DNA of 64,000 nt, from positions 1 through 64,000 of IMG/VR virus record IMGVR_UViG_3300013121_000044; one strand, written 5' to 3'. Within the stretch, counting starts at the first letter, position 1; each line of letters starts with the position of its first letter. This DNA comes from a virus. Its lineage: Duplodnaviria > Caudoviricetes. This document shows, in pieces, positions 1,018-62,284 of the stretch. The position numbers and the translations under genes are program-made. The notes under the pieces were generated by a model that worked only from the letters and a program-made list of their open reading frames with translations, searched no databases and was not told where the DNA came from.

Positions 1018-1581
1018 ATGGCGTCCGAAACCGAACTGCTGAATTCAACGGGGCTCGTGGTGATGCTCCGCGACCCCAACACGGGGGAGGTGATGCACCT
1101 GAACTTCCCGCCGGGGACGTACGAGATCCCGCTGGAGGCGCACCTCCCGGCGCGTGTCGCGAAGGTCACTCTCTACGCCGAGCGGCTGCCTCGGGGCGGG
1201 GAGTACGACGTACGGCTGGTGTTCGACACCAACCCTCCGTCCGCAAAGGACGCCCCGCTCGGATCGACCCTCATTCAACCCGTGGCCTCCGAGGTTCTGG
1301 GGAATCGCACCACGTACCGTCCGGACGGTCCTGCGCGGTCGATCCCCCCGGCGGGCCCCCCGGAAGCTCCGGTGACCTCGGTGATCGCCCCTACGCCCCC
1401 CGAGGTGACGCCCGTGACACCCCTCCAGGTCGAGCCCTCGACGGGGGCCCCGGAGACGCCCCAGGCGCCCGCCCAGGGCGCCTCGGGAGGGGTGGACGCC
1501 CCCAAAGCCCCTTCGCCCACCACAGAGGCCCAGAAGGGCTCTCCGAAGGGGACGGGAGCGGGAGGTCGGAGGGGTCTGTAG
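1018..1581 (+). CDS. Hypothetical protein with Pro-rich C-terminus
   Basis: Protein-like N-terminal half. Fills the gap between two minus-strand genes. Confidence 0.55.
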   Translation: MASETELLNSTGLVVMLRDPNTGEVMHLNFPPGTYEIPLEAHLPARVAKVTLYAERLPRGGEYDVRLVFDTNPPSAKDAPLGSTLIQPVASEVLGNRTTYRPDGPARSIPPAGPPEAPVTSVIAPTPPEVTPVTPLQVEPSTGAPETPQAPAQGASGGVDAPKAPSPTTEAQKGSPKGTGAGGRRGL

Positions 1582-1584
1582 GGA

Positions 1585-4624: not shown

Positions 4625-4661
4625 ACAGGGAGCCTACGCTCCCGTACGCCGTATGCCGAGG

Positions 4662-6060: not shown

Positions 6061-9000
6061 CAGCGCTGAACCACGAGGTGGAAAGCGATGTTGTTGAGGG
6101 GGCGCGCGACCCTGGCGCTGAAGACCATTTCAGCGGTGTCCGCCGCCGCTGCGCTCGGGGCCAGGGAGATGATCGACCCCGAGAGAAGGGGCGGCCCGAT
6201 CCGCTGGATGAAGCGGCCCGTCAAGAGCGTGGTGTTGTCCTGGACGGCGCGGTAGACCTCGTTGAGGGCCTCGGGGATGTTGTTGTACTGCCCGAGGAAG
6301 CTCTTGAGGAGCGCCTGATAGAAGACCGACAGGTAGTCGACGTTCTTGACGACCGAGAGCTCCCCCGTCTCCAGGCTGGTGGGGTCCGTGGTGAGCTGGT
6401 GGTTGCAGGAAGGCAGAGCCCCCTCCACCTCTTGCGTGCAGACGAAGAACCCTCCATCAGAAATGGTCGAGAGCTCTTCCTCGGAGAACATGTCCGAAGC
6501 GTTCTTCAGCCGGTCGACCCCGATGAAGGTGCCGTTGGTGAGGCCCATCTGAGGGGGCGTCCCCGCGATGACACCGGCCACGGCGCAGGCGAGGTAGTAC
6601 GACGGCAGGTAACCCGCCAGAGTCCGCACCGAAGGCAGCGTCCTGGGCAGTGAGCCGTCCCGCAGGTCCGCCACGCCGACGAGGTCCGGCCACATGAGCG
6701 TCAGTCGCTTCGAGCGGACCGACTGAGCGATCGCGACGAGCGCGAGTGCTTGGTCCTCGGTCGTGAGCGTACGGCGTACGCGGTAGGCGATCGCGTTGGG
6801 CGCGGTGATGTCGACATAGCGATCTTGGAAGTCGCGCGCGAAGTAGTGCGGGAGTTCCCGGGCAGTGTCCGCCGCGTCGTCGAAACCGTTCGCGATGCGG
6901 AACCGGTTTTCGTTGAGGGTGGTCGCGATGGGGTACGAGAGCACCCGGCCCGAGAACGCTGAGGGTCCGTAGTCGTTCGGGTCGAGCGGAATCTCGACGC
7001 GATCACCGGCGCGAACGCCGGCCTGGAGGAAGGTGGCGCTCGCGTCTTCGAGCTGATTGAAGAGGGCGTCGTTGAGGATGACCTGCGCCGTGCAGCTCCC
7101 CGTGATGGGCATGATCGAGGCAGGGGCGACCGGGCTCTGCGTCCCCGGATCCACCACGTTCGTCCCGCCCGCCGTCACCACGGCGGTCATCAATGCCGAG
7201 AGCGTCGCGTTCGCAGCGACCGCCGCCGCCACCTGAGCGTGCGTCGTGGTGCCGCCGACGGTGATGGTGATGGCGAAACCCACCACCGTGATCGCGAGGG
7301 CGGAGCCTGCGGCGTAGGTGATCGTGTAGGGCCCACCCGTCACCGTGGGCGACAGCATGGCGAAACGAATCGTGCCGAGCGTACCGCCGCCCCCCGTGGA
7401 CACGTCGAGGCGCGCGAGGTTCGAGATCTTGACCGTCCCGTCGGGCCCTCGCACGAGGATCTCGATGTCATCGGCCCCTGCCGCCGCCGTGTCGTCCCAA
7501 CGGCTCGTTCCGGGGATGATCTCCAGGGCCGAGGGGTCTCCGGGGTTCGGGTCGTTGACCGAGCTGTTGACGTGTCCGACGCGGTGCGTCCCGCGCCGAT
7601 TCTGCCACGCGGTGGTCCCCGTGCGGATGAGCCCGATGGTCACCGAGTCGCCGGGCACCACGGACCGCACCCCCACGGAACCGGTGGACGCGGCGTCGAT
7701 GGAGATCGTCCGGTAGAGGTTCGTGACGGCCGATCCCACGGTCTGCGACACGCCCGAGATGGACCCTTCGTACACGGTCTGGGCGACGGGGAGGGACACG
7801 CTCCCGAGCGCGATGCGGAAGCGCTGCATCACGCCACGATCGCGGGCGTAGATCGGGGACGCCTGTTGCTCGAAGGCCGCCTTCGCCGCCGCATGGACGT
7901 TCAGGTCTTGCGTCAGGTTGACGAAGACGTAGAGATCGCCGCGCGACGCGGTCCGAGCGCGCGCGTTGGCGTAGCCCGTCGAGTCGTCCGCCGAGACTCC
8001 GTAGTAGTAGATCGGGACGTTGCCGCCGTTGTCGAGCGCGAGCTTCACCCCCACGGCGAGGGGGTTCCGCGCGTCGAGCTTGCCGATGCCGCGAATCGTC
8101 GGAATGCCGTTGACCGTCTGCTGGTCTGTCGGGACCGCAGATCGAACGCCCTGGAGGTCTTGTCGCAGGGCTCGGTAGCCGAGATAGACCTGCGCGTAGG
8201 AGAGCGCCCGCGTGACCGTGGACGCGCTCGGGGAAGGCGTCGCCACCGTCGGACGAGGCGTGAGGGGGAGGCTCAGGGTCACGCCCCCCTTGATCACCAG
8301 CTTGTCCGAACCCGGCTCCGGGAAGACGATGAGGGTGCGCGTGGGATCCGTGAGTTCGCGCGTGGAGAGGGTCCGTTCGATACGGGCCTCCCCCAGCGCG
8401 TCGTACACCCACCGATCCGCGCCCGTCGTGCCTCCGGTCATGCCCGACACGAGGAAGACTGCGTTCGCCACGGTCTCGGTGATGGTGACGTTACCGAAGG
8501 CGCCCGCTGCGTCGTTCGTCAGGTTGAGAGTGTTCCCAGACCCCGGGGCGGCGGTGATGGCGAGGCCCCCTACCACCCCGTTGATGGCCGTGACCATGGC
8601 GTCGCGCACCTGGGACGCGGACCACCCGGGGGTGATCGGAACGGCTACACGACCGCCTGCGACCACGCCGTCTCGATCGAACTCGAAGACAGTCGCCGGG
8701 TTCACCCCGTCGTTGAGCGTGAAGGTTTCCCCCTCGTCGGCGCCCCCGGCCATACCCACGACCAGGAACCCGGCGTCCACCACCGTGTCCGTGATCGCGA
8801 CGTTACCGGCCACGAGGCAACGGTCCGCTGCGAGGTTCACGACCCCGGCACCTCCGGGAGAAGCCGAGATGCGCAGCCCCGCGCCCACGCCCTGGATGGC
8901 TGTGACGATCGCGCCGCGCACGGTGGCCTGAGAGTCGCCTACCGTGAAGGGGATCGCGACGTTTCCGCCGCTGACCCCGCCCCCCGAATCGAACTCGAAC

Positions 9001-9737
9001 ACCGTGGCAGGGTTCACGCCGTCGTTGAGCGTGAAGGTTTCGCCGTCGACGAGGGCTGCGCCGCCCCCCGCAGGCACGGTGATGGAACCCGTGGCGAAGG
9101 CTCCCACGAGCGCGGACTCGGCGACGGCGGTCATCGACCCGGTCGCCGTGGCGTCCGGGGTGGGGAGCTGCTGCGTGATGCGCAGGAGCGCCTCGTTGCC
9201 GGCCGGGATCAGCCCGTCCCCGTTCGGCTCGCCGACGGACGCGATGGTTCGCGCCACGGTCTGGCCCGAGCTCGATGTGAGGATGATCCGATCGCCCGGT
9301 TGAACCCCTGCCTGCACGAGGTTCGTCGTCACGGAGGTGAACGTGATGAGGGTCCGGTCCGCCGCCGTGGTCGTCACGCGCGTCCCGAGCACCGGGGCGA
9401 TGCCCGAGGAGAGATACGTCGAACCCAGGACGACGCGGGGGGTGCGCAGGGTCACGCGCGCCGAGCCGTGGTCGACCCGGGCGCCTGCGCTCTGACCGGG
9501 GAAGCCGCCGTCGAGCACCGTGACGGCGTCGGTGCCCGTGGCGGGCGGCGCGTACGTGGCGTCCTGCTCCAGTTGCCCGTAGGCCGAGGGGAGCAGGATC
9601 TGATCCCCGTCATCGGGGTAGTCCAGTACGTCGTACGCCGGGCCCACGATCACGGCGTTGAGGTCGGGGGTCGCGGGGGTCGCCGAGGGCTGGGCGATCT
9701 CCTGGAAGATCAGGATCAGAGGCTTGAGGGACGCCAT
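6060..9737 (-). CDS. Tail sheath protein (1225 aa, with large insertions)
   Basis: N-terminal IFQEIAQPS...AVIVGPAY. C-terminal sheath signature YLACAVAG...HQLTTD...ELSVVKNVDY...PLNNI. Upstream of the tube gene. Confidence 0.85.
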   Translation of the reverse strand: MASLKPLILIFQEIAQPSATPATPDLNAVIVGPAYDVLDYPDDGDQILLPSAYGQLEQDATYAPPATGTDAVTVLDGGFPGQSAGARVDHGSARVTLRTPRVVLGSTYLSSGIAPVLGTRVTTTAADRTLITFTSVTTNLVQAGVQPGDRIILTSSSGQTVARTIASVGEPNGDGLIPAGNEALLRITQQLPTPDATATGSMTAVAESALVGAFATGSITVPAGGGAALVDGETFTLNDGVNPATVFEFDSGGGVSGGNVAIPFTVGDSQATVRGAIVTAIQGVGAGLRISASPGGAGVVNLAADRCLVAGNVAITDTVVDAGFLVVGMAGGADEGETFTLNDGVNPATVFEFDRDGVVAGGRVAVPITPGWSASQVRDAMVTAINGVVGGLAITAAPGSGNTLNLTNDAAGAFGNVTITETVANAVFLVSGMTGGTTGADRWVYDALGEARIERTLSTRELTDPTRTLIVFPEPGSDKLVIKGGVTLSLPLTPRPTVATPSPSASTVTRALSYAQVYLGYRALRQDLQGVRSAVPTDQQTVNGIPTIRGIGKLDARNPLAVGVKLALDNGGNVPIYYYGVSADDSTGYANARARTASRGDLYVFVNLTQDLNVHAAAKAAFEQQASPIYARDRGVMQRFRIALGSVSLPVAQTVYEGSISGVSQTVGSAVTNLYRTISIDAASTGSVGVRSVVPGDSVTIGLIRTGTTAWQNRRGTHRVGHVNSSVNDPNPGDPSALEIIPGTSRWDDTAAAGADDIEILVRGPDGTVKISNLARLDVSTGGGGTLGTIRFAMLSPTVTGGPYTITYAAGSALAITVVGFAITITVGGTTTHAQVAAAVAANATLSALMTAVVTAGGTNVVDPGTQSPVAPASIMPITGSCTAQVILNDALFNQLEDASATFLQAGVRAGDRVEIPLDPNDYGPSAFSGRVLSYPIATTLNENRFRIANGFDDAADTARELPHYFARDFQDRYVDITAPNAIAYRVRRTLTTEDQALALVAIAQSVRSKRLTLMWPDLVGVADLRDGSLPRTLPSVRTLAGYLPSYYLACAVAGVIAGTPPQMGLTNGTFIGVDRLKNASDMFSEEELSTISDGGFFVCTQEVEGALPSCNHQLTTDPTSLETGELSVVKNVDYLSVFYQALLKSFLGQYNNIPEALNEVYRAVQDNTTLLTGRFIQRIGPPLLSGSIISLAPSAAAADTAEMVFSARVARPLNNIAFHLVVQR

Positions 9738-10502: not shown

Positions 10503-11324
10503 TTAGTAGAGGGGCTGGAGGGTGTCGGGAGATACTGGGTAGCGATAGAGGACGTGGTCGCGCGCGAGCTCCAGACACGTCAGGACTTGGTGGACCCCCG
10601 CCAGCTGAATCTCCGTCTGGAGTTGCCGGTCCACCTCGAACCGTCGCTGGTCGTGCAGGCTCACCAGCACGTCGTCCTTCTCCATCTGAGGGAAGTCGGG
10701 GAGCCACATTTGCACGCCGTTGGCGTCGGACTTCTGTTCCGGGGTGTTGGTCACCGTGGTCGCGGAGGCGCTGCGACGGGCGTAGGTGAGAACGGGGGCC
10801 CAGTACCCTCCGTCGTATCCCGTCCCCCAGCAGCTCTTGCACTCGGAGCGCACGACCTGTTTCGTCCGCTTGTCGTAACAACGATCACAGCGTGGGCCCC
10901 ATGTCTTGCGCTTGAGGAGCACGACGGGCGTGCCGTTGAACTTCAGGCTCAGCCGGAAGTCTCGGATGAGCTTTCGACGAGGCCCCGCCATGCGCGGGTT
11001 CAGGACGCTAGGGCCGGTCTCCACCACGTCTCGCAGGATCGCGCCCCCGGGGGCCGTGCACGTCACCCGGTAGTACAAACGGTCGTAGAGCGTGAGCTGA
11101 TTGGGCCGGACGTGGTCCAGCGCTTCGGAGCCTCGATCGAGCGTGTCCAGTACGGCGTACTGTGAGGCGACGGGTCCGAGCACGTGGCCCCAGGGCCCTT
11201 CGGGGCCTCCCGATCGCTCCAGGGTGAAGGTGTACTCGCCGGACTCCGTGGCGCCCAGCACCGTCCACTGGACGAACTGCCCTCTCGGGAATACCGCCGT
11301 GGTGAGGGTGATCTTGACTCTCAC
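10503..11324 (-). CDS. Putative neck/head-closure protein with Zn-finger
   Basis: CDRC...CKSCWGTGYDGGY motif. Lies between the capsid and tail genes. Confidence 0.6.
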   Translation of the reverse strand: MRVKITLTTAVFPRGQFVQWTVLGATESGEYTFTLERSGGPEGPWGHVLGPVASQYAVLDTLDRGSEALDHVRPNQLTLYDRLYYRVTCTAPGGAILRDVVETGPSVLNPRMAGPRRKLIRDFRLSLKFNGTPVVLLKRKTWGPRCDRCYDKRTKQVVRSECKSCWGTGYDGGYWAPVLTYARRSASATTVTNTPEQKSDANGVQMWLPDFPQMEKDDVLVSLHDQRRFEVDRQLQTEIQLAGVHQVLTCLELARDHVLYRYPVSPDTLQPLY

Positions 11325-14115: not shown

Positions 14116-14492
14116 GTCGTGCTCCCGAGTCGTTCACGCAGAAGCGTAAGAGCCCGCGTGGCGGCGAGGATGTCGTTCGCGCGTGCCACCTTCGTGAGGG
14201 CCTCGGCCCGGTCCAGGAGGCGGAGGTCATGCGCGAGCTTCCGAAGAGGGTCACCGGCTCCCTTGCTGTCCGGGGCCGAAGGAGAATCGGGCACGGCGAA
14301 GGTGCCCGACTGTACGGCGTACAGCTCCTCGTAGGTGAGGTCTTGTGCGGACTCCCCGAGCTTCCGGATGTCCTCCGCCAGCTTCCTCATCTCCATGGAC
14401 GCCGTCTTGACGCCTCCATCGCCGGACATGGGAGGCCGTTGCGCGACGCGGGCCTCAATCTCGTGGAGCGTATCGACGAAGGTGTATCTCAT
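14112..14492 (-). CDS. Small head-associated protein (KxA motifs)
   Basis: ATG at 14492 overlaps the upstream stop; VKTAS, RKLAE, RKLAH, TKVAR. Confidence 0.65.
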   Translation of the reverse strand: MRYTFVDTLHEIEARVAQRPPMSGDGGVKTASMEMRKLAEDIRKLGESAQDLTYEELYAVQSGTFAVPDSPSAPDSKGAGDPLRKLAHDLRLLDRAEALTKVARANDILAATRALTLLRERLGSTT

Positions 14493-15131: not shown

Positions 15132-16898
15132 CTAGGTGGTCAGCAGGATGTGGAGGTTCTCGGAGAGCACGTCGAGGTCGACGGCGGCGTCCGCGTTCGA
15201 TGTCCGGTCCGCGCGCCCCACAAGGGTATCCGCCTGTGCGTTGAGGGGGAGGGCGGCCCACTTGAGGAACCGGTCCCCGCCAGTACGCCGTACGCGAGCG
15301 AGGGCCTCGTCAATCTGGGCGTCGCGCGCGAGTTTTTCGGCCCAGGACGCAGGCGTGAGGGCCGCCGCCTTGAACTCGGTACCCCCGGAGACGGGCACTC
15401 CCTGGTCCGTCATGTACGAGGGGTTTCGGTACGGTGTGAACGCCTTCCGTGCGGCCCGTTCGGTCGCGGTCCCGAGGCCCGCCGCCAGCGGTAGGGCGAG
15501 GGCGGTGTGGAGCGCTTTCCCCCCGAGGACGTGGTGGAGCCCCGCCGCGTAGAGGCCCGTGAAGAGGGCCGTGTTGAGGAGGCGCTTCTTCACGTCCGAC
15601 CGGGAAGCGTCCATCGCGGCGCCTCGGGTCGTTTGATACGTGTGCCCCGTGTAAGGGTCCGTGATCGTCAGGAGGTCCGAGCGCGGGGGTTCGGCCGACC
15701 GGTAGTGCGCGCCGGGTCCGGGCGGGGACGCTTCATCGGACCAGGGCGCGAACGCGCGATCGCGGAGCACGTCCCCGACCGGGCCGTACGAAGCGGTCTT
15801 GAACGTCTGGGGGTACCTGCCGAGCACGGCCACGAGGGCGGGGGTCGCGACGACTAGCCGGTCGAGGGTGTTCTGACTCAGGGCGAGGTGATAGGCGTCT
15901 GCGGCCAGCTTCGCCACTTCCGCTTGACCGAGGAGTCGCGGGTGCGCCACCGCCGCAAGGGGGGTCGCAGGGGCTGCGGCGGTCTTGGGGATCCCAAGCG
16001 CGCGCACGTAGCCGCCGATCAGGGAGTCGGGCTCGGTCCACGCAGTGCGGATTTCGAGGGCCGCGCGCTCGAATCGGTCACGCAGGCGCTCGTGTTGTTC
16101 GAGGCGATCTCCGAGGGCGGCGCTCAGGCGCGTACGTTCGTACGCCACCTTCTGCATCATCCAACCTGTGGGGTCCGCCGGACGGAAGACGAACGAAATG
16201 TCGAAGAAACGGGGAGACGGGTTGAGGACGCAGACCTTCCGCCCGTCGGGGAGGACGGCCCGCATTTGCGTGAGGGCGTGGCGACAATACTGCGCGCGCG
16301 TGGGTGCGCGGTGTCCGCAGATGGTGCACACGTCCCAGCGGACGTGACAGCCCATGGACACGGCCGGGAAGTCTCCGTCACCGATCCGCTGCGGGATTTC
16401 GGGATCCCGTGCGTTGACGTAGCGGAGAAGCAGCTCCACCCGGTGCATTCGGGTGTTCCGAAACGCGTGAGGTACGGTGCCGAGCGACTTCGACGGGTCC
16501 TTGTTGACGTGGTGGCGATAGATGCCGCCGTGTTGCTCAAACGTCTTGTAGTGGTGGGGGAGAGTTTCAGCCTCCGCAACCCACCCCTCCAGGGACGCTG
16601 TGCACTCCGGGTGGCCGCACGTGGCGCGCCGCCCGACCATGTACGGGAGCGCGTTGAACCCGTCCCCGTTTTTGTTGTCGTCGTAGTACTCCCACTCTCC
16701 GAGCGCGTTGACGAGGACGTAGGTGATCCCCTCTTCCGGCTGGACGGTGGTCAGGAAGTCGTATGCGGGAGACTGGCTTTCGGCGAACGCACGTTTCTCG
16801 ATCGACAGACCGCCTCCGTGGTTTCGCCACGCCACGAGCTGGACCGTGGGTTCGCCGGTCTTGGGGAAGCGGTCTTCGAGTTCGAGGAGCTTGCGCAC
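15132..16898 (-). CDS. Prohead (capsid maturation) protease with long C-terminal extension
   Basis: NKNGDGF, HHVNKDP, VSMGC (putative catalytic Ser), CTICGH...YCRH and FFDISFV..PAD. Confidence 0.8.
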   Translation of the reverse strand: MRKLLELEDRFPKTGEPTVQLVAWRNHGGGLSIEKRAFAESQSPAYDFLTTVQPEEGITYVLVNALGEWEYYDDNKNGDGFNALPYMVGRRATCGHPECTASLEGWVAEAETLPHHYKTFEQHGGIYRHHVNKDPSKSLGTVPHAFRNTRMHRVELLLRYVNARDPEIPQRIGDGDFPAVSMGCHVRWDVCTICGHRAPTRAQYCRHALTQMRAVLPDGRKVCVLNPSPRFFDISFVFRPADPTGWMMQKVAYERTRLSAALGDRLEQHERLRDRFERAALEIRTAWTEPDSLIGGYVRALGIPKTAAAPATPLAAVAHPRLLGQAEVAKLAADAYHLALSQNTLDRLVVATPALVAVLGRYPQTFKTASYGPVGDVLRDRAFAPWSDEASPPGPGAHYRSAEPPRSDLLTITDPYTGHTYQTTRGAAMDASRSDVKKRLLNTALFTGLYAAGLHHVLGGKALHTALALPLAAGLGTATERAARKAFTPYRNPSYMTDQGVPVSGGTEFKAAALTPASWAEKLARDAQIDEALARVRRTGGDRFLKWAALPLNAQADTLVGRADRTSNADAAVDLDVLSENLHILLTT

Positions 16899-16901
16899 GG
16901 G

Positions 16902-17987
16902 TCAGTTGCCGTGTTCGTGCAGCGTCTTGGCGTGCTGCATGATCTTCTTGAGGACGGGCGTCCCGTCCCCCGCCATGGCGTTGATTACGTCCGCGTGGAG
17001 CGACATCGGGTTATCGGTCGCGTGCGCGATGAGCTTGGACTCGTCGCGCGTCAGATGGTGGAGCATGTGCAACGCCCACGCCTTTTCGTCGGGGGTGCCC
17101 CGGTCGAGATGCGCGTGCGTGGCCGCGACCAAGCTGTTCACGAACTTCCCCGCCTTCTGCTTCTTCTCAGACAGGGCTTGCGCCATCTGTGCCGCGCGCT
17201 CGGCGGCGATCTGCTTGGCCGCGTTCTCGACGATCGCGGGTTGATCCTTCGATGGTACGCGGGCCTTGGGGGACTGCGGGTTCGCGAGGAAGGCCGTCGC
17301 CGACTGAGCGGCGGGCGCGTATTCGGGGTCCCTCCCGGCGAGCTCCGTGAGCGTGTTCGCGTGGTCCCTGTCTCGGTTGAGGGCCCACTCCTTGTTTTGC
17401 ATGAAACGGACGTTGAAGTCGTCGGTTGCGTGCATGTCGTCGACGAGCTTCCGGGCTTGCTCCTCCCCCGCGAGCTGCCGGGCCTTCGACCACGTCCCGT
17501 AGCCGTGACCCACCACACTGCCGATCGCCGCACCCGGCAGCGCGTAGGTGAGAGCGCCGCGAAGGCGGTTGTCGTCGTCCTTCCAGGCCCCGACGCCACC
17601 TCCGATCGCTGTCCCGATGAGGGCGCCGCGCGCGGTGGGGGATCGCAGCGCATCCCCGAACGCGGAGGAAGTCTTGAGGAGCCCTCGGAGGTCCCGGATC
17701 GCGGCCTCTGCGTTCACGTCGAGGAGGAACTCCCGCTCCTCCGCCGTGTAGCGGCCCTCGGCGGCGAGTTTCTCGATGGCGGCGTCGACGAGGGCGGCTC
17801 CCGCGACGCTCGCGGCGAGAGCCTCGCGCAGAGGGCGCGCCGGGCCCCCACGAGACCCCGCCTCGTGTGAGGCCCACTTTTCGATTGCGGCGAGCGCGTA
17901 GGCGTCCGAGGGCGCCTCGCCCGAGGTGAGAGCCTGTTCTTTGAACCGGACCCACGCCTCCCGTACGGCGTACGGAGGGGTCGTCAC
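16902..17987 (-). CDS. Probable internal virion protein with glycine-zipper segments
   Basis: GTG at 17987 overlaps the upstream stop. GALIGTAIGGGVGA...GAAIGSVVG; EKWAS, EKLAA. Confidence 0.65.
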   Translation of the reverse strand: MTTPPYAVREAWVRFKEQALTSGEAPSDAYALAAIEKWASHEAGSRGGPARPLREALAASVAGAALVDAAIEKLAAEGRYTAEEREFLLDVNAEAAIRDLRGLLKTSSAFGDALRSPTARGALIGTAIGGGVGAWKDDDNRLRGALTYALPGAAIGSVVGHGYGTWSKARQLAGEEQARKLVDDMHATDDFNVRFMQNKEWALNRDRDHANTLTELAGRDPEYAPAAQSATAFLANPQSPKARVPSKDQPAIVENAAKQIAAERAAQMAQALSEKKQKAGKFVNSLVAATHAHLDRGTPDEKAWALHMLHHLTRDESKLIAHATDNPMSLHADVINAMAGDGTPVLKKIMQHAKTLHEHGN

Positions 17988-43157: not shown

Positions 43158-43213
43158 GGGGGAGGGGGGTGCGCCGTACGTCGTTCGCGGCGTACGGCGT
43201 ACTCCTCTCCCCC
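43158..43213 (+). other. 26-bp RNA hairpin with UUCG loop (intergenic)
   Basis: 43158-43183 pairs fully with 43188-43213, using four G-U pairs. Confidence 0.7.
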
Positions 43214-47702: not shown

Positions 47703-50700
47703 ATGGGTACGCCCCTCCCGCAGGTCCCCGTGGAGACGTGCATCCCGTGCCGCCGGCCCCCCTACGACCAGAAGGCGGGGCCGGCGTGCGCGGGGTGCCC
47801 GGCTTTCAAGAACACCCACTACTTCCCCTTCTCCGACGGCCCCGAGGTCCCGGACCTCGTGATCCTCGGCGACGCCCCCGTCGCCCCCCGGCTGTCTCTG
47901 ATCGGGGGGCGGGAGCTCGTCTCGGCGGACATCTTCCACCAAGCGTTCAAGGACGACGGCGGAAAGGTGCTCCGAAACGCGGTCACGGACGTGGGCCTCC
48001 AAGCCGACTTCCAGGGCCTCACGGCGCGGTACGTGTACGCCGTGAAGTGCGCCACCGAGCGCCCGAACAAGACGGTCCTCACGTCCTGCCAGGGGTACCT
48101 CCGCGCGGAGCTCGGCCGACTGGCGGCCTCCCGCCGCATCGCGGGCTACTCCACGAACCTCGTGATCCTCGCGTGCGGCGTGAACGCGTTGCACGCGCTG
48201 GGCGTGCCCGTGAAGTCGGAGGGCGAATCGCTCGGCCGCGTGTTCGAGAACGTGGTCGTCGGCGAGGTCCTCGTGGACGTGATCGCCACGCGCTCGATCG
48301 CCACGTACGCGGCGGGCGTCGGCAAGTACCCCACGCTCCTCGCGGACGTGGAGCGCGCGGCCCGCGTCGCGCGCTCGAAGCCGGTCCAACAGACCCCGCG
48401 CGCGGAGCTGGAGCGGGGGTACGTCTACCCCAAGACCATCGCGGAGGTGCGCGAGGTCGTGCAGATGATCCGGGCGTACGCGGGGGAGGGCTACGCGCCC
48501 GTCGACTGGTACGTCGCCGCCGACACCGAGACGAACACCCTGCACATGAACTACTCCTGGGCGAAGGCGATCACCGCGTCCTTCGCGTGGGACGACGGCA
48601 AGGCCACCGCCATCACCCTGTGGCACCCCCAGGCCCCCTACGACCCCGAGGAGGCGTGGCGATACGTCGTACGGCTGGTCGACTCCGGCAAGCCCCTCAT
48701 CTGGCACGGCGGGAAGTTCGACTACAAGGTCTTCTGGAAGCACGGCTACCCCCTGCGCGCCGTGGGGAACACGAAGTGGGACACGCTCCTCGCCGAGCAC
48801 GTGCTCGAAGAGGACAAGAAGGGCGAGTACAGCCTGAAGCCCCTCGTGAAGCGCTTCCTGCCCGCGTACGCGGGCTACGAGGACCGCCTGAAGGAGCTCC
48901 TCGAACGGGACGACGCGGAGGGCGTGCTCCTCCAGGTCAACCGCACCAAGGCCGTGAAGCTGCCCCAGGCCGTCTCCGACGCCTTCGCCCTGGCGCGCGA
49001 GCGGAAGTGGGTGTCGAGCGCGAAGTTCAGGGCCGACACCCTCAAGAAGCTCATCGAGACCGGCAGGTTCAAGAAGACCGAGCTCTCCCCGGAGGACCTC
49101 GACACCCTCCGCCTCCTCGTAGCCGCGCAGGAGGCGGGGGAGTTCTCCGGGCGGGCGCAGGCCCAGGCCGCCAAGGAGCGCAAGCGAAAGGGAGGCTTCG
49201 AGCGCATCCCGCTCGACGAGCTGCTCTTCTACGCCTGCGTGGACGCGGACGTGACGCGCCGCCTCGCCATCATCCAGAGCCACCGGATGCGGGCGGAGGA
49301 CGAGCAGATCCGCCAGTGGCGGGAGATGGTCGCGGCGCAACTGGCGGCCCAGCCCCCGGACCCGGGTGGCCCGCGTCACGTCGTGCGAGACCCGTGCCCG
49401 CGCGAGGACCGCCAGCACGCGATCGTCCGCGAGTTCAAACTCCCACTCCAGGCGGAGATCGCGAAGATCGAGTACCGGGGCGTGCGGATCGACCGCGACT
49501 ACCTCGAAGACGGCAAGGGCAAGCTCGACGGCGTGCTCGCGGCGATGGACCAGGAGATCTTCAAGATCTGCGGCGAGAGCTTCGGGATCAACCAGCGGAA
49601 GAAGCTCGCGTCGTTCCTCTTCGAGGGCGGGGCGGGCTTCCTCCACCCCGACCCCGAGCACGCCGAGGAGATCGTCCGCCAGAACCCCACCGAAGTGCGC
49701 TACGTGAACGGCCGCATGACGTACGTGCCCCACCACTTCACCGCGACGGGGCAGTTCCAGACCAGCGCGGACGTGCTCAAGAGCCTCGTCAGCCGGTACC
49801 AGTGCCCGCTCGCCAACCTCCTCCTCGCCCGCGCCAAGGCGGACAAGGCGCGCAACTCGTTCTTCGAGAACGCCGACATCCTGTCGGCCATGTTCGAGGA
49901 CCTCAAGCTCCACGGCGGGTACAACCTCGCCGGCACCGCCACGGACCGCCTCTCGTCGAGCTCCGGCGTCGACGGCGTGGGGTGGAACTGGCAGAACATC
50001 CCGAAGGGCCTCCTCGGCGCCCTGCGGAACACGCGCGGGGACCTCGTGATCGGGGCGGACGGCAAGCCCGTCTTCGAGGGCGTCAACTGCAAGAAACTCG
50101 TCATCCCCTACGACTCCTCGATGTGCATCGGGAACGCGGACGCCAAGGGGGCCGAGGTCACCGTCTTCGGGTCGTACGCCGACGACGCGGCCCTGATTCA
50201 GGCCCTCATCGACGGCATGGACCCGCACTGCTTCTTCGCGTCCGAGGCTCTCAACCCGGCGCGCGTCGGCGCGGGGCTCACGGGGAACGCGCGGCGCCTC
50301 GCCCTGGAGAAGGCCGGGGTCGACGACGACCACGCGTGGTCGTACGACGACTTCAAGAACCGCGAGGAGATGCGCGAGAAGGGGGTCGGCAAGCTCATCA
50401 AGGACGGCGGCATCGGCGACCCGAAGAAGCGCGCGACGTGGGAGTTCCCCGACCTCGTCGACTACGCGGACCGCCTGGACAAGCTCCGCGACAACATCAA
50501 GAGGCTCGTCTTCGGGATGCTCTTCGGCGCGGGCGTCCGGAAGATCGCGGAGATCGCGGGCATCAGCCTGGAGCTCGCCGAGAAGATCAAGGCGCTCCTC
50601 TTCGAGCGGTTCCCGTCCATCAAGACGTACATGGACGAGACGAAGTGGGAGCTCAACATGTTCGGCCTCGTCGAGACCGTGCACGGGGGGCGGCGGCGCT

Positions 50701-51479: not shown

Positions 51480-51868
51480 AGGACTCGCCGAAATTCTGGG
51501 CGCGGGAGTATCTGTGCGAGCCTCCGCCGCGCACGGAAGCCTATCGGCGCGCCTACATCCTCTGGTGTGTCGCGCACGCCCTCATGGAGCGGAAAGATCG
51601 CACGTACTGCACGGGCACGGGGCACGAAGGGGAGGCGCTTCCTTTGACGGGGTGGGAGCGCGACGCGGTGAACCGCACGGGGAGGCGCATGTACAAGGCT
51701 CTCCGGCGCCTCGCCGAGCGATTCCCAGCAGAGGATTGGAAAGCGGCGAAACGTGACGCCGAGCGCACGTCCCTTCGGGAGCGTGAACGCATCGCACAAG
51801 ATCATTCGGACGTGGTGGCGGAGGTGCGCGCTGCGTACGCCGTATTCTCGGAGGGGTACCCGGTATAA
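51476..51868 (+). CDS. Hypothetical protein
   Basis: GTGA overlap with the upstream stop. Confidence 0.55.
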   Translation: MKDSPKFWAREYLCEPPPRTEAYRRAYILWCVAHALMERKDRTYCTGTGHEGEALPLTGWERDAVNRTGRRMYKALRRLAERFPAEDWKAAKRDAERTSLRERERIAQDHSDVVAEVRAAYAVFSEGYPV

Positions 51869-52025: not shown

Positions 52026-52817
52026 GTGAACATTTTCGCCGCCGACACCGAGACCCTGGGGCTCATCCCCGGGGAACACCGCGTCATCGAGTTGAGCTTC
52101 GCCCGCGTCACCGACGGTGACTGGTCGAACTTCAAGATCGAGACCTTCCGTTTCGTCCCGCGTCCCGAGCACTTCGTCAAGGCCCACCCCAAGGCCCTGG
52201 AGGTGAACGGCTACCGGGAGGGCCATCCCGACTGGAAGGGGGCGCCCGAGATCGGGAGCCCCGAGGCCGCCGACATCTGGAGGTACGTCGTCTCGCGTAC
52301 GCGCGGCGCGGCCCTCCTCTGTCAAAACGTGCCCTTCGACCGGGGCATGATGTGGGAGGAGATGCGCCTCCACGGGGCGTACGCCGTACCGCACGGCGTC
52401 GGGCCCGAGGAGGGGCCCTGGGAGAAGCACTTCATCGAGGTGCGCAAGTGCTCCACCTTCCTCCAGAAGAAGCACGGCTGGCGCTCCGCGAGCCTGAACC
52501 CCCTCTACGAGGAGTGCCGCGCGGCCTTCGGCGCCCCCCCGCTCCCCCACCAGCACCGCTCGGAGTCGGACGTGCTGCGGGCCCTCTGGGTGTGGGCGCA
52601 CGCGGCGGCCCTTTCGGGGGACGGGTCGGCCCCGGAGATCTCGGTGAAGAGGGCGATCCAGGGGTGGCTCAACGGCGTCGGCGTCGAGACGCGCTCGACG
52701 ATCCTGCCGGGGGTGCTGCACTCGGTCGAGTTTCGCGGCACCGTGGCGCAGCAGGACTCGATTCCCGTGGGGGCCTGCGGCGCGCCCGACCCCACGGTGC
52801 CCGACACCAACGCGTGA
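52026..52817 (+). CDS. DEDDh 3'-5' exonuclease (DnaQ-like)
   Basis: DTETLGL...IELS, NVPFD, HRSESDV; GTG after AGAGGA. Confidence 0.8.
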   Translation: MNIFAADTETLGLIPGEHRVIELSFARVTDGDWSNFKIETFRFVPRPEHFVKAHPKALEVNGYREGHPDWKGAPEIGSPEAADIWRYVVSRTRGAALLCQNVPFDRGMMWEEMRLHGAYAVPHGVGPEEGPWEKHFIEVRKCSTFLQKKHGWRSASLNPLYEECRAAFGAPPLPHQHRSESDVLRALWVWAHAAALSGDGSAPEISVKRAIQGWLNGVGVETRSTILPGVLHSVEFRGTVAQQDSIPVGACGAPDPTVPDTNA

Positions 52818-55526: not shown

Positions 55527-56542
55527 CAGACCGCCGCCCTTCGTACGCCTGCCGACCGGAGCGTCTCCCCGAGAACCCGCTTGAGCTCCATGGGGAGCGT
55601 CGGCAAGACCGCCGCCAGCTTCGCGGCGTCCATCTGACCTCCAGGCGCGATCTCGCGTACCACCTCCGGCCCGAGCGAGTCGGCGTAGAAGTCCGGCGGG
55701 AAGGCCACGAGGTCTTGCAGGTCGTAGGCCCCTCCCCCGATGTCGATCATCTGCGCGCTCACCTTCATGGGCGTGTTGAAGACCGTGTGGAGGGGGTCCG
55801 GAATCTTCCGCCCGTAGTGGGCGTCAACCCCTGCGGTCTTGTCGAGCTTGAGGAGGAGCGACGCGAGCTTCACCCTTGCGTCGAACGACCGGAGGGCGGT
55901 GGGTTCCTGGCGCAGCGCCGTCGCGGCGCGCTCGTAGGCGTCGCGGACTTCGGCGGTCTTGGCGAGGTGAGCCCTCGCCGCGAGCCCGTCGAGGACCACC
56001 CCCGGGTTGGCGAGGGCGGACATCCCCCACGCCTGGGCGGCGGGCTGGAGGGTGACCCCGTGGCGCTCGGCGGCTTGCGCCAGCTTGTGGAAGGCGGCGA
56101 CACGAGCCGGGAGAGCGAGACGATCCGCCTGTTCGAGGAGGCGGGCTTCGGCCATCTTGACTTCGCGGGGGCCACGAACGGGGTAGGTGTGATTCTCCGG
56201 GAAAATGAAGTCGTCGTCCGATTCTGCCACCTTCTCAGTGACGCGGACGAGGGCCTCCTGCGGTACGCCGTACGCCTCCAGGGCCTCGGCGATCTTCCCC
56301 CGGACGAAGGCAGGGGCCAGGGGGTTAGAGCCGACGTAGAGGTGGGACACGACCGCGTGCGCGGGGGTGTGGATGGGGTACCGCCGCTGCGTGGGCCACG
56401 CGAACGCGGTCGAGGGCAGATCCGAGGGGTCGTCCTCGAACTCCGCCGTCTTGAGGATCGGTTCGACGCCGGGGTGGCGGGCCACGAGGTGGCGGAGGTG
56501 GGCGTGGGCGGCGTCGTGGTAGATGTCGATGATCATCGTCAC
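55526..56542 (-). CDS. Probable head protein (KxA-rich)
   Basis: 9 of 13 Lys lie in KxA. Internal repeat AFAWP..RRYPI / DFIFP..HTYPV. Confidence 0.7.
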   Translation of the reverse strand: MTMIIDIYHDAAHAHLRHLVARHPGVEPILKTAEFEDDPSDLPSTAFAWPTQRRYPIHTPAHAVVSHLYVGSNPLAPAFVRGKIAEALEAYGVPQEALVRVTEKVAESDDDFIFPENHTYPVRGPREVKMAEARLLEQADRLALPARVAAFHKLAQAAERHGVTLQPAAQAWGMSALANPGVVLDGLAARAHLAKTAEVRDAYERAATALRQEPTALRSFDARVKLASLLLKLDKTAGVDAHYGRKIPDPLHTVFNTPMKVSAQMIDIGGGAYDLQDLVAFPPDFYADSLGPEVVREIAPGGQMDAAKLAAVLPTLPMELKRVLGETLRSAGVRRAAV

Positions 56543-57513: not shown

Positions 57514-57905
57514 GACTCACCTCCGAGGACATAGGTTCGCTCCCCGGGCACGGTCAGCGAGGCAACCTCCGGGTCCCACGCGGCAGCCACTTCGGCGAGG
57601 CGCCGCTTCGTGTGCTCGATCAACGTCGCGAGTGCGGTTCTTGCGAGCGCGTGAGAAGTCGCGCCCATTGCGCGAAAGAAGGTGCGCCCGAGGTCCCGGG
57701 CTTCCTCGCGAGAGTTCGGCCACGCGGTGATGTCGTCCACCGTGGCGACGTGGCTATAGGAACCGTCGTCCGTGCGGTGAACGAAGAGCTCGCGCGGTAC
57801 GCCGTACGCCTGCGCGACGACGAAGCGGCACGTGTACGTCACGCCCCCTCGCCCATCGTCCTCGCGACCCACTGTCTCTTCGACGCGCACCCAGGCGGAG
57901 CTCAC
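57510..57905 (-). CDS. Hypothetical protein
   Basis: Coupled overlaps. ELFVHRTDDGSYSHVATVDDI resembles segments in both neighbours (LFVV...RRVATLRDF; LFVL...ARIATPLDV). Confidence 0.6.
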   Translation of the reverse strand: MSSAWVRVEETVGREDDGRGGVTYTCRFVVAQAYGVPRELFVHRTDDGSYSHVATVDDITAWPNSREEARDLGRTFFRAMGATSHALARTALATLIEHTKRRLAEVAAAWDPEVASLTVPGERTYVLGGES

Positions 57906-58822: not shown

Positions 58823-59384
58823 GATTTACGGCGGTGTGGACCCGGGTCTGGTGTCGCCGGCAGCGGCGGTCGTTTCTTTGAGCGGGCAGCTCCTCGCGGC
58901 CTCGTCCTTTACGATAGGGCGTGACCTTCGCGGTGGGCGGCGCCTCGCCGAGATCCGGCGCCAAATCGCCCTCTTCTTCGCCCCCTGGGGCCCCCTGGCC
59001 GGGGCGGCGATCGAAGGCCCCAGTCTCAACTCCGAACACCGAGAGTACGACCTCGGGGAGATGTCCGGGGCCGTACGGAGCTGGTTCTACGAGAACGGAG
59101 AGGTCGAGGCCACGGTCGTCGAACCGGCGCGACTCAAGCTCTACGCCACGGGCAACGGGCAAGCGACCAAGGACCTCGTTCGGCAATACGTCGTACGGGA
59201 CCTCCGGTTCCCGGTTGAAAGTGAGGACGCCGCCGATGCGGCCGTTCTCGCGCACATCGCTTTCGCGTTGGCCTCGAAGGTGCGCCCGGCCACGCGTGAT
59301 CAGGCGGAGGTCTTGCGGGACCTCCGCGCGCCACGTCCGCAGGTGCGTCGGGCGAGGCGGCGCACGAAGACCCTCAACGTCTGA
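58821..59384 (+). CDS. ruvC: RuvC-like Holliday junction resolvase
   Basis: GVDPG, IEGP, LKLYATGNGQATK, DAADA. Confidence 0.82.
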   Translation: MIYGGVDPGLVSPAAAVVSLSGQLLAASSFTIGRDLRGGRRLAEIRRQIALFFAPWGPLAGAAIEGPSLNSEHREYDLGEMSGAVRSWFYENGEVEATVVEPARLKLYATGNGQATKDLVRQYVVRDLRFPVESEDAADAAVLAHIAFALASKVRPATRDQAEVLRDLRAPRPQVRRARRRTKTLNV

Positions 59385-59392
59385 GAGGAAAC

Positions 59393-62284
59393 ATGGGAGA
59401 AGGACTCAATCAAGGTACGGTTTCTTCGGTCAGCGGCGCTCCTGAGGCGCCGCGTGTCTTGAAGCAGGTCGCCCGGCCCCTCACCTGGGATCAGCGGTTC
59501 CCGCGTCACGCGTTCGACGTGCGCCGCTACGACGCGGTCATCCGTCGCGCGAACGGAGAGGAGGTGTTCCGGCTGGACGGCGTCGAGGCCCCCGCCCACT
59601 GGGGTGACACGGCGATCAACATCGCCGCGCAGAAGTACTTCATTCGGAAGGGCGCGAAGACGGACGACGCCCGCGAGCGATCCGTCTTTCGCATGCTCGC
59701 GGGCGTCGCCGATACGATCGCGGCCAGCGGCTACGAGCAGGGTGTCTTCGCGAGCGTCTCCGATTCGCAGTACTTCCAGTCGGACCTCTACCAGCTCCTC
59801 GTCGAGCAAATGGGCGCCTTCAACTCGCCGGTCTGGTTCAACGTGCGACACTGGTACGTCCACGGCATCGTCGGCAACGGTAACAACTGGGCGTGGGACC
59901 GGGAGACGAACGGTTACCGCGTGATCGCCAACAGCTACGAGCGCCCCCAGTGCTCGGCCTGCTTTATCCTGCCCGTCGAAGATACGCTCGACGGTGAGAA
60001 CGGCATCGCGGAGACTCTCATGGCGGAGACGCGCGTCTTCAAGAGGGGCTCCGGAGCGGGAGCGAACTTCTCGCGCGTCCGGGAGCGCGGGGCGCCCACG
60101 GCCAGCGGCCACGCGAGCTCCGGCGTGATGAGCTTTCTGGAGGTGCTCGACCGGAACGCTGGGTCCATCAAGTCCGGCTCCGTCGCGCGCCGCGCCGCGA
60201 AGATGGTGACTCTCGACGTGGATCACCCGGAGATCGAAGACTTCATCGGCTGGAAGGTTCGGGAGGAGAAGAAGGCGTACGACCTCATGGCGGCGGGTTG
60301 GTCGGGGGGCATGGAGGGCGCCGCCTATTCCACGGTCGGGGGCCAGAACGCGAACAACTCGGTGCGCGTGTCCGACGAATTCATGCAGGCAGTCGAGAGG
60401 GACGGTGACTGGGATCTCCTTTCGCGCGTCGGTGGGCATACTGCGCGAACAGTCAAGGCTCGCCACATCTGGCACCAGATCGCCAAGGCGGCCTGGACCG
60501 TGGCCGACCCTGGGCTTCAGTTCGACACGACCATCAACGACTGGCACACGACGCCCAACGCGGGCCGCATCGACGCGTCGAATCCGTGCAGTGAGTACAT
60601 GCACATCAACGATTCGGCGTGCAATTTGGCGTCGATTCGTCTCACGAAGTTCCTGCGACCGGAGGGCGCGTTCGACACGCAAGGTTTCCGCGACGCGTGC
60701 CGCACGTTCATCGTGGCTCAGGAGATCCTCGTGGACCTCTCGTCCTACCCCACGCGAGGCATCGCGGAGGGAGCGCATCGGTTCCGTCAGCTCGGCCTCG
60801 GCTACGCGGACTTGGGGGCGCTCCTCATGCTCCTCGGCTACCCCTACGACTCGGACGCGGGGCGGGCCGTCGCGGCGCAGATCACCTCCCTCATGACGGC
60901 GGAGGCGTACCGCACGAGCGCAGAGCTCGCGCGGCATCTCGGCCCCTTCGAGGGGTACGCGGCGGACCGTGAGAACGTCCTCCGCATCATCGCGAAGCAC
61001 CGCGAGGCCGCGCTGACGTTCCTCACCGTGGACACCCCCCTGGCCAAGAAGCTCCAGGAGGAGGCGTGCCGCGTCTGGGGCGACGCCCTGGGGCTCGCCA
61101 TGGAGTACGGCGTACGCCACGCCCAGGTGACCCTGCTCGCGCCCACCGGCACGATCGGCTTCCTCATGGGGTGCACCACGACGGGCGTCGAACCCCTCCT
61201 CGCGCACCGTCAGTACAAGACGCTCGCGGGCGGGGGGTCCCTCGTGATCCTCAACGACATCGTCGAGGCGTCTCTCAAGAACCTCGGCTACGGCGCTGAC
61301 GCCATCCAGCAGATCACGCGGTACGTTGAAACCCACGGCTACTTCACCGGTTCGCCGCTCCTGCCTCAACATCTCCCGATCTTCGACACCGCGTTTCCTG
61401 CGCACGGGGATCCGGAGAACCGGAGCCTCAGCCCCGAGGCCCACGTCCGGATGGTCGCCGCTGTCCAGCCGTTCCTGAGCGGCGCGGTGTCCAAAACCGT
61501 GAACCTCCCCGCCTCCGCGACGGTCGAAGACATCGAGGCCATCCACATGCTCGCGTGGAGGAGCAAGCTCAAGGCCGTGGCGGTCTATCGGGACGGGTCG
61601 AAGGGCGCTCAGCCCGTGAAGACCAAGGCCGAGGCGTCTCCGGTCGCGCGGGTCCAGCTCGACAAAAAGGGGTCCACGAATCCGGCCGAATACATGCCTC
61701 GCGAGGCCCTGACGCCGAACCCCGTCTTCAAGCGCTTCCAACGCAAGCTCCCCAAGGTGCGCAAGGGCGTCACCTGGGCGCTCAAGCTCGACGAGCACAA
61801 GATCTACATCCGCTCAGGGGAGTACGAGGACGGATCCCTCGGGGAGATCTTCGTCGACCTCGCCAAGGAGGGTTCCACCCTCGGGGGGTTGGTGGGCATG
61901 TGGTCGAAGGCCATCTCGCTCGCGATCCAGTACGGCACCCCCCTGGAGGAGCTCGTCGAGACGTTCACCTACACGCGCTTCGAGCCGTTCGGTCGGGTGC
62001 TCAACCACCCGACGATTCGTACGGCCACGTCGATCGTCGACCTCGTGATGCGCACCCTGGCGGTTCACTACCTGGGTCGCAAGGATCTCCAACACGTGCA
62101 GCCGGACGCCCTCATGGAAGGGCAGATCCCCCCTCCCACGCACCCGGCCACCCCGGACGAACCGCAGGGGTTGACGGCAGCTTCCGGGGACGGCCCGCCG
62201 TGCCCGGCGTGCGGTACGATCACGAAGCGGAACGGCGTGTGCCATCGCTGCCCCAACTGCGGCGAATCCCTCGGGTGTAGTTGA
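59393..62284 (+). CDS. nrdJ: Class II (adenosylcobalamin-dependent) ribonucleotide reductase with TSCPD and Zn-ribbon C-terminus
   Basis: FNSPVWFN, QCSACFI, SNPCSEY, ACNLAS, APTGTIG, GAVSKTVN, YRDGSK and C-terminal CPAC...CPNCG..GCS. Confidence 0.92.
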   Translation: MGEGLNQGTVSSVSGAPEAPRVLKQVARPLTWDQRFPRHAFDVRRYDAVIRRANGEEVFRLDGVEAPAHWGDTAINIAAQKYFIRKGAKTDDARERSVFRMLAGVADTIAASGYEQGVFASVSDSQYFQSDLYQLLVEQMGAFNSPVWFNVRHWYVHGIVGNGNNWAWDRETNGYRVIANSYERPQCSACFILPVEDTLDGENGIAETLMAETRVFKRGSGAGANFSRVRERGAPTASGHASSGVMSFLEVLDRNAGSIKSGSVARRAAKMVTLDVDHPEIEDFIGWKVREEKKAYDLMAAGWSGGMEGAAYSTVGGQNANNSVRVSDEFMQAVERDGDWDLLSRVGGHTARTVKARHIWHQIAKAAWTVADPGLQFDTTINDWHTTPNAGRIDASNPCSEYMHINDSACNLASIRLTKFLRPEGAFDTQGFRDACRTFIVAQEILVDLSSYPTRGIAEGAHRFRQLGLGYADLGALLMLLGYPYDSDAGRAVAAQITSLMTAEAYRTSAELARHLGPFEGYAADRENVLRIIAKHREAALTFLTVDTPLAKKLQEEACRVWGDALGLAMEYGVRHAQVTLLAPTGTIGFLMGCTTTGVEPLLAHRQYKTLAGGGSLVILNDIVEASLKNLGYGADAIQQITRYVETHGYFTGSPLLPQHLPIFDTAFPAHGDPENRSLSPEAHVRMVAAVQPFLSGAVSKTVNLPASATVEDIEAIHMLAWRSKLKAVAVYRDGSKGAQPVKTKAEASPVARVQLDKKGSTNPAEYMPREALTPNPVFKRFQRKLPKVRKGVTWALKLDEHKIYIRSGEYEDGSLGEIFVDLAKEGSTLGGLVGMWSKAISLAIQYGTPLEELVETFTYTRFEPFGRVLNHPTIRTATSIVDLVMRTLAVHYLGRKDLQHVQPDALMEGQIPPPTHPATPDEPQGLTAASGDGPPCPACGTITKRNGVCHRCPNCGESLGCS

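Follow-up and report, generated by a model that had tools for sequence, protein, structure and literature searches.

An evenly spaced palindrome across a 187-kb phage genome, probably read by the phage's own ParA-less ParB

Clamps of the ParB family have so far been described in three settings, namely segregation from origin-proximal sites (ParABS), guarding of the division site (Noc) and regulation of plasmid genes (KorB). Here we analyse the first 64,000 nucleotides (hereafter the window) of the Caudoviricetes record IMGVR_UViG_3300013121_000044, in which a short palindrome with the 9-bp core TACGNCGTA recurs at even intervals, as it does along the rest of the phage genome. Comparison of sequences suggests that the phage's own ParB, encoded in the window without a ParA, probably binds these palindromes specifically and is loaded onto the DNA there. 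No account of a phage ParB with sites in a genome-wide lattice turned up in our literature searches. Dispersed dyad repeats as such have already been published for Cluster O mycobacteriophages, where they were not assigned a function (PMC4351075).

The closest mechanistic parallel is KorB with its operator OB on the IncP plasmid RK2. OB is a 13-bp odd-centred palindrome, TTTAGC-G-GCTAAA (PMC11790492, PMC13584720), from which KorB slides up to 1.5 kb and thus reaches distant promoters (PMC11790492). The likeness would lie in a cytidine triphosphate (CTP) clamp of the ParB family, an odd-length palindrome with a free central base, a site in the protein's own operon and many operators dispersed round the replicon, from which KorB acts at a distance by sliding. 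The phage sites share the trait of dispersed odd-centred palindromes that include the own operon, and we regard this as a functional resemblance and not as membership. RK2 carries about a dozen OB sites on 60 kb, mostly at promoters. The phage, in contrast, carries 90 sites on 187 kb that are evenly spaced and mostly genic; it has neither IncC/ParA nor a recognisable KorA, the Pfam KorB domain stays below its cut-off, and the replicon is probably a virulent phage instead of a plasmid.

For an orphan ParB the closest parallel is Noc of Bacillus with its NBS sites (structures 7ol9 and 7nfu, cited in PMC12704722). Noc is a ParA-less ParB paralogue with canonical domain order that spreads in a CTP-dependent manner from many palindromic sites over the whole chromosome, and it is found among the top sequence and fold matches of the phage ParB. 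About 70 Noc sites are present on 4.2 Mb. They are thus about 30 times sparser than the phage sites and they avoid the terminus; Noc also has an N-terminal membrane-targeting helix, and the Noc profile TIGR04285 scores far below its cut-off on the phage protein. The chromosomal ParABS systems share the protein family and the CTP boxes, and a variant motif found in one relative (L133, see below) reuses the parS half-sites TTCAC/GTGAA. However, parS sites are few, clustered near the origin and dependent on ParA, while the phage sites are genome-wide without one.

Among phages, the Cluster O mycobacteriophages (Corndog) carry 34 invariant 17-bp dyads, TGTTCGG-N3-CCGAACA, on a genome of about 70 kb (PMC4351075). 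As in the present phage this amounts to about one repeat per 2 kb, with many repeats within genes or at gene ends, in a phage that is not obviously temperate; the repeats are predicted to bind a dimeric protein and the genome encodes a protein with a ParB-like domain. The repeats differ from ours in sequence and in phage lineage. The Cluster O study assigns no function, sets the ParB-like protein aside and gives no spacing statistics, co-variation or reader assignment (PMC4351075). The stoperators of Cluster A (discussed in PMC4351075) likewise repeat one short protein-binding site dozens of times along the phage genome, but they are asymmetric, oriented with transcription and bound by a temperate immunity repressor, whereas the sites described here are palindromic and unoriented.

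An even lattice of palindromes

The source record is a single contig of 186,803 bp with 66 % GC, of which the window is the first 64 kb. Its ends are identical over 141 bp and its completeness is rated at 100 %. We refer to this complete 186.8-kb phage genome as G000 and use G000 coordinates outside the window. DNA near-identical to that of this uncultured phage is found in metagenomes of activated sludge, wastewater and estuary (8 studies).

A first-pass annotation had reported 26 cores in the window and an excess over chance. All 26 are present (Table 1), while dinucleotide shuffles contain 0.31 on average and 2 at most. The extension to RTACGNCGTAY, also reported, is found in 25 of them, the exception being the core at 39495 with T at position −1. 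The whole genome holds 90 cores, 87 of which are flanked by R and Y, compared to 0.7 to 7.8 cores predicted by Markov models of orders 1 to 5; an unbiased palindrome scan gives enrichments of 120- to 1,100-fold for this genome. The extended consensus is S-N-R-TACG-N-CGTA-Y-N-S, or approximately CCGTACG-S-CGTACGG, with symmetry reaching about 15 bp and C or G as the central base in 79 % of the genome's sites. Perfect sites dominate: one-mismatch sites in the window number 21 against about 11 expected.

Genes were called crudely from periodicity of GC at the third codon position (GC3), resulting in 202 genes that cover 89 % of the genome. Sixty-six of the 90 sites are wholly within called genes, compared to 5.0 ± 2.1 (maximum 12) after codon-preserving shuffles, a conservative comparison because the shuffle reuses the motif's own codons. 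The genic sites use all three reading frames (37/11/18) and both gene orientations. In frame 0 the spelling TAC-GNC-GTA accounts for 37 of the 69 Tyr-[Ala/Gly/Asp/Val]-Val tripeptides (2.0 expected), and GTA makes up 6.8 % of the valine codons, in agreement with the earlier remark that the sites rely on a rare codon. The earlier figure of 24 genic sites in the window nearly holds, our crude calls giving about 23 with the cores at 4645, 39495 and 43193 intergenic.

Gaps in the window measure 527 to 3884 bp with a mean of 2396, matching the range of 0.5 to 3.9 kb and the mean near 2.4 kb first given. Genome-wide, the coefficient of variation (CV) of the gaps is 0.53, or 0.46 once tight clusters are collapsed, while random placement yields 0.98 and never less than 0.68 over 20,000 simulations. 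As expected from the first-pass annotation, the gaps do not follow an exponential (Kolmogorov-Smirnov test, p = 4e-8); the gamma shape is 4.6. The longest gap is 5,994 bp, compared to an average longest gap of 10.4 kb under random placement. This site-free stretch (G000 154,358-160,352) has a lower GC content (62.7 %), many small open reading frames (ORFs) and zero one-mismatch sites, and it may represent recently acquired DNA in which sites have not yet been gained.

Sites are enriched about 2.3-fold in non-coding DNA (27 % vs 11 %), and 43 % of them are within 100 bp of a gene end compared to 28 % expected (P = 0.0015), as expected for sites placed at the lowest cost. Three tight clusters exist, every one intergenic. 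The first consists of three overlapping cores in a 7-bp register (G000 104,996-105,018) within a longer hairpin (G000 104985-105025), the inverted repeat GAGGGCGCC...GGCGCCCTC, directly 5' of the ribosome-binding site (RBS) and ATG start codon of a 91-aa gene. The second has two cores (G000 112,950-112,965) beside a terminator-like hairpin. In the third, cores at G000 162,328 and 162,357 occupy one copy each of a 29-bp tandem duplication. This duplication (G000 162300-162370) sits between a terminator-like hairpin and a start codon, and the gene upstream of it ends in a Gly/Arg-rich GGTCG(N) repeat.

Taken together, the shuffles, the gaps, the rare codon and the turnover of sites at a held density described below uphold the initial proposal of a DNA-level signal for even coverage, read by a dimeric organiser or protector of the genome. 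A packaging cue, proposed at the same time, loses ground since no evidence links the sites to the genome ends.

The phage ParB and its operon

The sole ParB_N match in the phage genome is the protein encoded at 39887-41008. It scores 66.3 bits with TIGR00180 (ParB/RepB/Spo0J, cut-off 58.45) and 40.9 bits with the helix-turn-helix (HTH) family PF17762 (HTH_ParB, cut-off 22.6); PF02195 by itself is weak (14 bits). The domain order is a CTPase-fold N-domain, the HTH, a Lys-rich linker and a C-terminal domain predicted to be helical. Both nucleotide-binding boxes are present, as GRRRVRAA (GxxRxxA) and ENDAR (ENxxR). The Box I-like, GRRR and ENxxR motifs are unvarying in 14 homologues, and so are residues G130, R131, R133, E165, N166 and R169 in 22 homologues.

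The closest sequence matches in the PDB are CDP-bound Spo0J, Noc, ParB and KorB. For the AlphaFold model (predicted local distance difference test, pLDDT, 75) the top Foldseek matches are CTP- or CDP-bound ParB, Noc and KorB with a probability of 1.0, and the template modelling (TM) score by target against KorB 8qa9 is 0.66. The predicted DNA-binding domain superposes on those of Noc 6y93 (TM 0.80) and KorB 1r71 (TM 0.70). Beyond the linker, where the family has its dimerisation domain, two long helices are predicted at residues 305-324 and 331-355 (pLDDT about 75-79) in a part that has no Pfam match. Residues 1-35 are rich in Lys, Ser and Thr and predicted to be disordered.

No ParA-type ATPase (PF13614, PF01656) was matched in the complete genome, while control profiles matched in 14 of 14 genomes. 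Residues 1-40 of the phage ParB do not contain the ParA-contact motif [LFI]G[KR]G[LFI] as defined in PMC12704722. Judged by its sequence, the protein is an orphan ParB with canonical domain order in the terms of that study. It is neither a typical KorB nor a typical Noc: the KorB domain PF08535 reaches 14 bits (cut-off 22.3), the Noc equivalog TIGR04285 48 bits (cut-off 315), and an N-terminal membrane-targeting amphipathic helix of the Noc type is not evident. A tblastn search of cultured phages returned only Listeria contigs at 31 % identity, which resemble host Spo0J/Noc. Single-protein searches of IMG/VR with ParB or P0022 gave no match; relatives were obtained by an alignment-based search and by exact-protein look-ups. 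An SMC partner for ParB was also considered and none was found, the single weak P-loop match being a deoxynucleotide monophosphate (dNMP) kinase.

About 460 bp ahead of parB, left empty by gene callers, contain a conserved small ORF. It starts with GTG at 39529 in the window and with ATG in relatives, consists of a core of about 115 aa followed by an acidic tail, and overlaps the parB start with its 3' end. The small ORF is found in all relatives, including one with 33 % GC, and it has no Pfam or PHROG family; its product may be a partner of ParB.

The palindrome at 39495 in the leader of this operon, invariant in six relatives, lies about 26 bp before the start of the small ORF and 18 bp after the element GGTAGAAG. 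This element is strand-specific, with nine copies on the + strand and none on the − strand where two are expected on each. The other copies are at G000 62309, 91055, 96896, 126265, 131049, 139480, 145505 and 145909. The element usually stands 20-45 nt ahead of an RBS and start codon and is a candidate promoter element of the phage. A palindrome occurs within 110 bp of five of the nine copies (P ~0.001, post-hoc test). This layout suggests autoregulation of the small-ORF/parB operon and a link of some sites to promoters.

Relatives and bacterial background

ParB homologues with 46-91 % identity are found in conserved synteny, in the order RNA polymerase (RNAP), SNF2 helicase, 173-aa gene, parB, sigma-like gene, PD-(D/E)XK nuclease, 1167-aa gene and PolA. 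The same core is over-represented at all of these loci, at 8, 8 and 14 sites per 21 kb. Two IMG/VR records contain 44 sites in 99.9 kb and 19 sites in 35.1 kb, with gap CVs of 0.44 and 0.46 and zero matches to the reversed control pattern. The motif is present too in shorter contigs whose ParB is 36-41 % identical. All fetched loci and records that encode this TACG subfamily of ParB (36-91 % identity) are enriched in the TACGNCGTA motif.

The individual sites turn over. We aligned 22 kb across four lineages (nucleotide identities of 95, 81 and 69 %) and found four sites common to all and many that are lineage-specific; the site in the polymerase gene is 31 bp further upstream in two lineages. 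What is conserved is thus the density and not the single site.

In the most divergent syntenic relative, L133, ParB is 33 % identical to the phage ParB and the motif is a different one. Its 21 kb contain zero TACGNCGTA cores; they carry five copies of TTCACG-N-CGTGAA (0.001 expected), one of them at the equivalent position in the operon leader, plus five weaker CACGNCGTG. With TTCAC/GTGAA the motif has the half-sites of canonical parS, TGTTNCACGTGAAACA (PMC7022226), spaced by G-N-C, and this links the motif type to the ParB family on grounds other than gene neighbourhood. Three IMG/VR fragments also have lattices of TTCACG-N-CGTGAA (14 sites each on 51.0 and 51.7 kb, 4 on 22.8 kb; zero matches to the control). 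Two of them, G007 and G008, encode a canonical ParB of the L133 subfamily.

Judged by RNAP (about 34 % identity), Salmonella phage Arash and the Vibrio phages D69, D181 and D148 come closest among cultured phages; a blastn search of cultured phages with 7 kb of the phage gave no match. Arash and D69 have no ParB HTH and no lattice, their best palindromes reaching 4- to 9-fold in the same unbiased scan as used above. As a separate observation, the 33 %-GC relative L134 has four copies of ATTACGTAC (2983, 5478, 5655 and 11149; 0.13 expected), a sequence that contains the palindrome TACGTA.

The motif is not a general bacterial signature. The 15-mer CCGTACGSCGTACGG was sought in about 186,000 prokaryote species genomes; the first 120 matches listed are scattered singles, mainly in Streptomyces and other high-GC Actinomycetota, and none of them falls in an enriched genome. 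The 120 loci (924 kb) contain 12 further 9-bp cores, or 0.013 per kb, compared to 0.48 per kb in the phage, which is about 37-fold above this background of high-GC bacterial DNA. Three whole bacterial genomes of 3.5-5.5 Mb have 4-13 sites apiece. No sampled bacterial genome is enriched, and in these genomes the host-like abundance regarded at the outset as a possible objection did not materialise. A locus with 3 sites in 7.7 kb (L011), from a Thermoleophilaceae metagenome-assembled genome, was considered as host or misbinned relative and rejected: it is unrelated to the phage, and its genome has 5 sites in 3.5 Mb.

Readings of the lattice and surrounding genes

We favour ParB as the reader because the lattice is selected, the canonical ParB is unique in the genome, its subfamily co-occurs with the motif and sites turn over at a held density, and also because the motif co-varies in L133, ParB-less relatives are bare, the leader site is invariant and competing readers are absent. 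By analogy with ParB, Noc and KorB, ParB dimers would recognise the palindrome via their HTH domains; after CTP binding and ring closure they would slide off over about 1-2 kb. We infer binding, CTP dependence and sliding from membership of the family, and the purposes given below are to be taken in the same sense. Selection would hold one site per ~2 kb, with a maximum gap of 6 kb, and so keep the whole 187-kb chromosome within reach; with no intergenic DNA on hand, the site would be written into genes by synonymous or tolerated codons. Given the site in the small-ORF/parB leader, ParB probably regulates its own synthesis. The even 2-kb spacing fits a clamp of limited travel, since KorB slides up to 1.5 kb (PMC11790492).

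Several points weigh against ParB as the reader. Co-occurrence and co-variation would be compatible with any other DNA-binding protein that co-evolves in the lineage, too. The remaining fragment with a TTCAC lattice (G006, 29 % complete) has no ParB in its sequence. In the TTCAC-subfamily ParBs of G007 and G008 the recognition helix is still VSQYLAVF and hardly differs from the TACG type; the specificity switch must therefore lie elsewhere, and Y208/G210 of this helix, considered at first, are set aside. The low-GC relative L134, with the same operon, shows no clear TACGNCGTA or TTCAC lattice in 11 kb. Finally, the exclusion of a host signature holds for the bacterial genomes sampled.

The alternative that stands up best, although we consider it unlikely, is that ParB is unrelated to the sites and that they are bound by another dimeric protein encoded by the phage, such as a nucleoid-like protein or a global repressor. 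Most genes of the phage are without a recognisable family, leaving room for such a protein, the co-variation is at the level of phage lineages and not of contact residues, and the dyad repeats of Cluster O are likewise without an assigned reader (PMC4351075). On the other hand, ParB is the sole recognised family here that uses dyads of 13-16 bp at many dispersed sites, and a variant motif built of canonical parS half-sites, a site in the parB leader of every relative and the absence of a lattice from relatives without ParB also count against another protein.

Far less probable is a plasmid-like prophage in which ParB, helped by a host ParA or one that escaped detection, binds the sites as a partition centromere of the ordinary kind. 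Phage-plasmids such as P1 and N15 do rely on ParB/SopB, with several dispersed centromere sites in N15. But neither a ParA-type ATPase nor the ParA-contact motif is present in our phage, and 90 evenly spaced sites far exceed what a centromere needs. No integrase or resolvase was found in the phage genome, so the phage is probably virulent, and it has its own RNAP, DNA polymerase and ribonucleotide reductase as large virulent phages do.

We give as little credit to the palindrome as the target of a modification, nicking or restriction-related enzyme, with an epigenetic or anti-defence role. Enzymes do typically target short palindromes whose central base is free, and the phage encodes a dNMP kinase. 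Some ParB-like proteins of phages also activate thymine dioxygenases (5mYOX); these lack a DNA-binding domain and are encoded together with a Tet/JBP-type thymine dioxygenase (PMC13229309). The phage ParB, however, has an HTH, and the genome was found to contain neither a Tet/JBP-type dioxygenase (PF12851) nor a DNA methyltransferase of the N6/N4, C5 or Dam type (PF01555, PF00145, PF02086). The modification mark suggested initially loses ground with these absences, and we reject a methylation mark as well as the model of a ParB-activated dioxygenase. Selection for enrichment and even spacing would moreover be unusual for enzyme targets.

A host compositional signature (HIP1-like or an uptake sequence), or else a signal for the phage RNAP in transcription or RNA, is also highly improbable. 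The bias to non-coding DNA and gene ends and the proximity of sites to GGTAGAAG would suit it, but the bacterial background is too sparse, most sites are genic in all frames and both gene orientations, and a stem of 4-5 bp is too weak to act as a terminator. A host signature would also leave unexplained the even spacing and the change of motif between syntenic sister lineages whose GC is similar.

Returning to ParB as the reader, we see two leading candidates for the purpose of the lattice, each tentative and of equal weight: global transcription control as by KorB, and compaction or gathering of replicating DNA. Self-marking or protection is less likely, and some other purpose less likely again. 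It is conceivable, if somewhat short of an even chance, that a virulent phage thus loads a ParA-less CTP-dependent ParB clamp over its whole chromosome from about 90 even sites while host DNA without sites stays bare. Such ParB coating may be widespread, and Cluster O mycobacteriophages may be a cultured example of it.

If true, the phage would mark itself throughout with a layer that gathers its DNA, shields it or switches it globally. This would be a role of ParB outside partition and nucleoid occlusion and a fourth use of the clamp, namely coverage of a whole viral genome. It would explain the dispersed dyad repeats in phage genomes such as those of Cluster O, a puzzle since 2015, and the tolerated gap, with a mean of about 2 kb and a maximum of 6 kb, would be a natural gauge of the effective sliding range. 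Because sites are ~37 times rarer in high-GC bacterial DNA, such a system could tell phage and host DNA apart, with a bearing on defence and counter-defence. The orthogonal protein-site pair with its two specificities (TACG and TTCAC) might also serve for DNA tagging or silencing.

Table 1. Palindromic cores and elements of the parB operon in the window (L001, L003, L004 and L133 are relatives)
Feature	Position	Strand	Context
Core TACGACGTA	1204..1212	.	genic, frame 0
Core	4645..4653	.	intergenic
Core	6770..6778	.	within 1225-aa tail-sheath-like gene
Core	9627..9635	.	within the same 1225-aa tail-sheath-like gene as core 6770
Core	11151..11159	.	genic
Core, 15-bp extended palindrome CTGTACGGCGTACAG	14313..14321	.	
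Core	15284..15292	.	genic
Core, full 15-bp palindrome CCGTACGGCGTACGG	17964..17972	.	
Core	21092..21100	.	genic
Core	23110..23118	.	genic
Core	26386..26394	.	junction of two minus-strand genes
Core	28923..28931	.	genic
Core	31474..31482	.	RNAP beta/beta'-N gene; conserved in L001, L003, L004
Core	33265..33273	.	RNAP gene; conserved in L001, L004
Core	35202..35210	.	present in L001, L003; lost in L004
Core	38968..38976	.	176-aa gene upstream of parB operon; conserved in all aligned relatives
GGTAGAAG promoter-like element of small-ORF/parB operon	39469..39476	+	strand-specific; invariant in 6 relatives
Core, operon leader	39495..39503	.	conserved in all relatives; respelled TTTCACGGCGTGAAA in L133
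Conserved small ORF, candidate partner	39529..39990	+	overlaps parB start
Orphan canonical ParB, 373 aa, proposed palindrome reader	39887..41008	+	
Core	43193..43201	.	intergenic
Core	46069..46077	.	conserved 1169-aa gene
Core	48663..48671	.	DNA polymerase A gene; 31 bp further upstream in L003, L004
Core	51836..51844	.	genic
Core	52380..52388	.	genic
Core	56264..56272	.	genic
Core	57798..57806	.	genic
Core	59187..59195	.	genic
Core	61106..61114	.	ribonucleotide reductase gene

The RNAP of the phage is multisubunit, with beta fused to beta'-N (29050-34620, − strand) and a separate beta'-C (26406-28304, − strand). The fused gene ranges from 1513 to 2477 aa among relatives, and matches to LAGLIDADG/Hom_end in the longer versions suggest inteins. 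The DNA polymerase is of family A and the ribonucleotide reductase of class II, and SNF2 helicases are also encoded. Between the PD-(D/E)XK nuclease and DNA polymerase A, every relative has the gene for a conserved 1169-aa protein (44149-47658, + strand), which has no Pfam family and only a marginal PHROG match and is probably a replication protein. The dNMP kinase (G000 111091-111876, − strand; PF21448, 42 bits) belongs to a kind of gene that is frequent in phages with modified bases.

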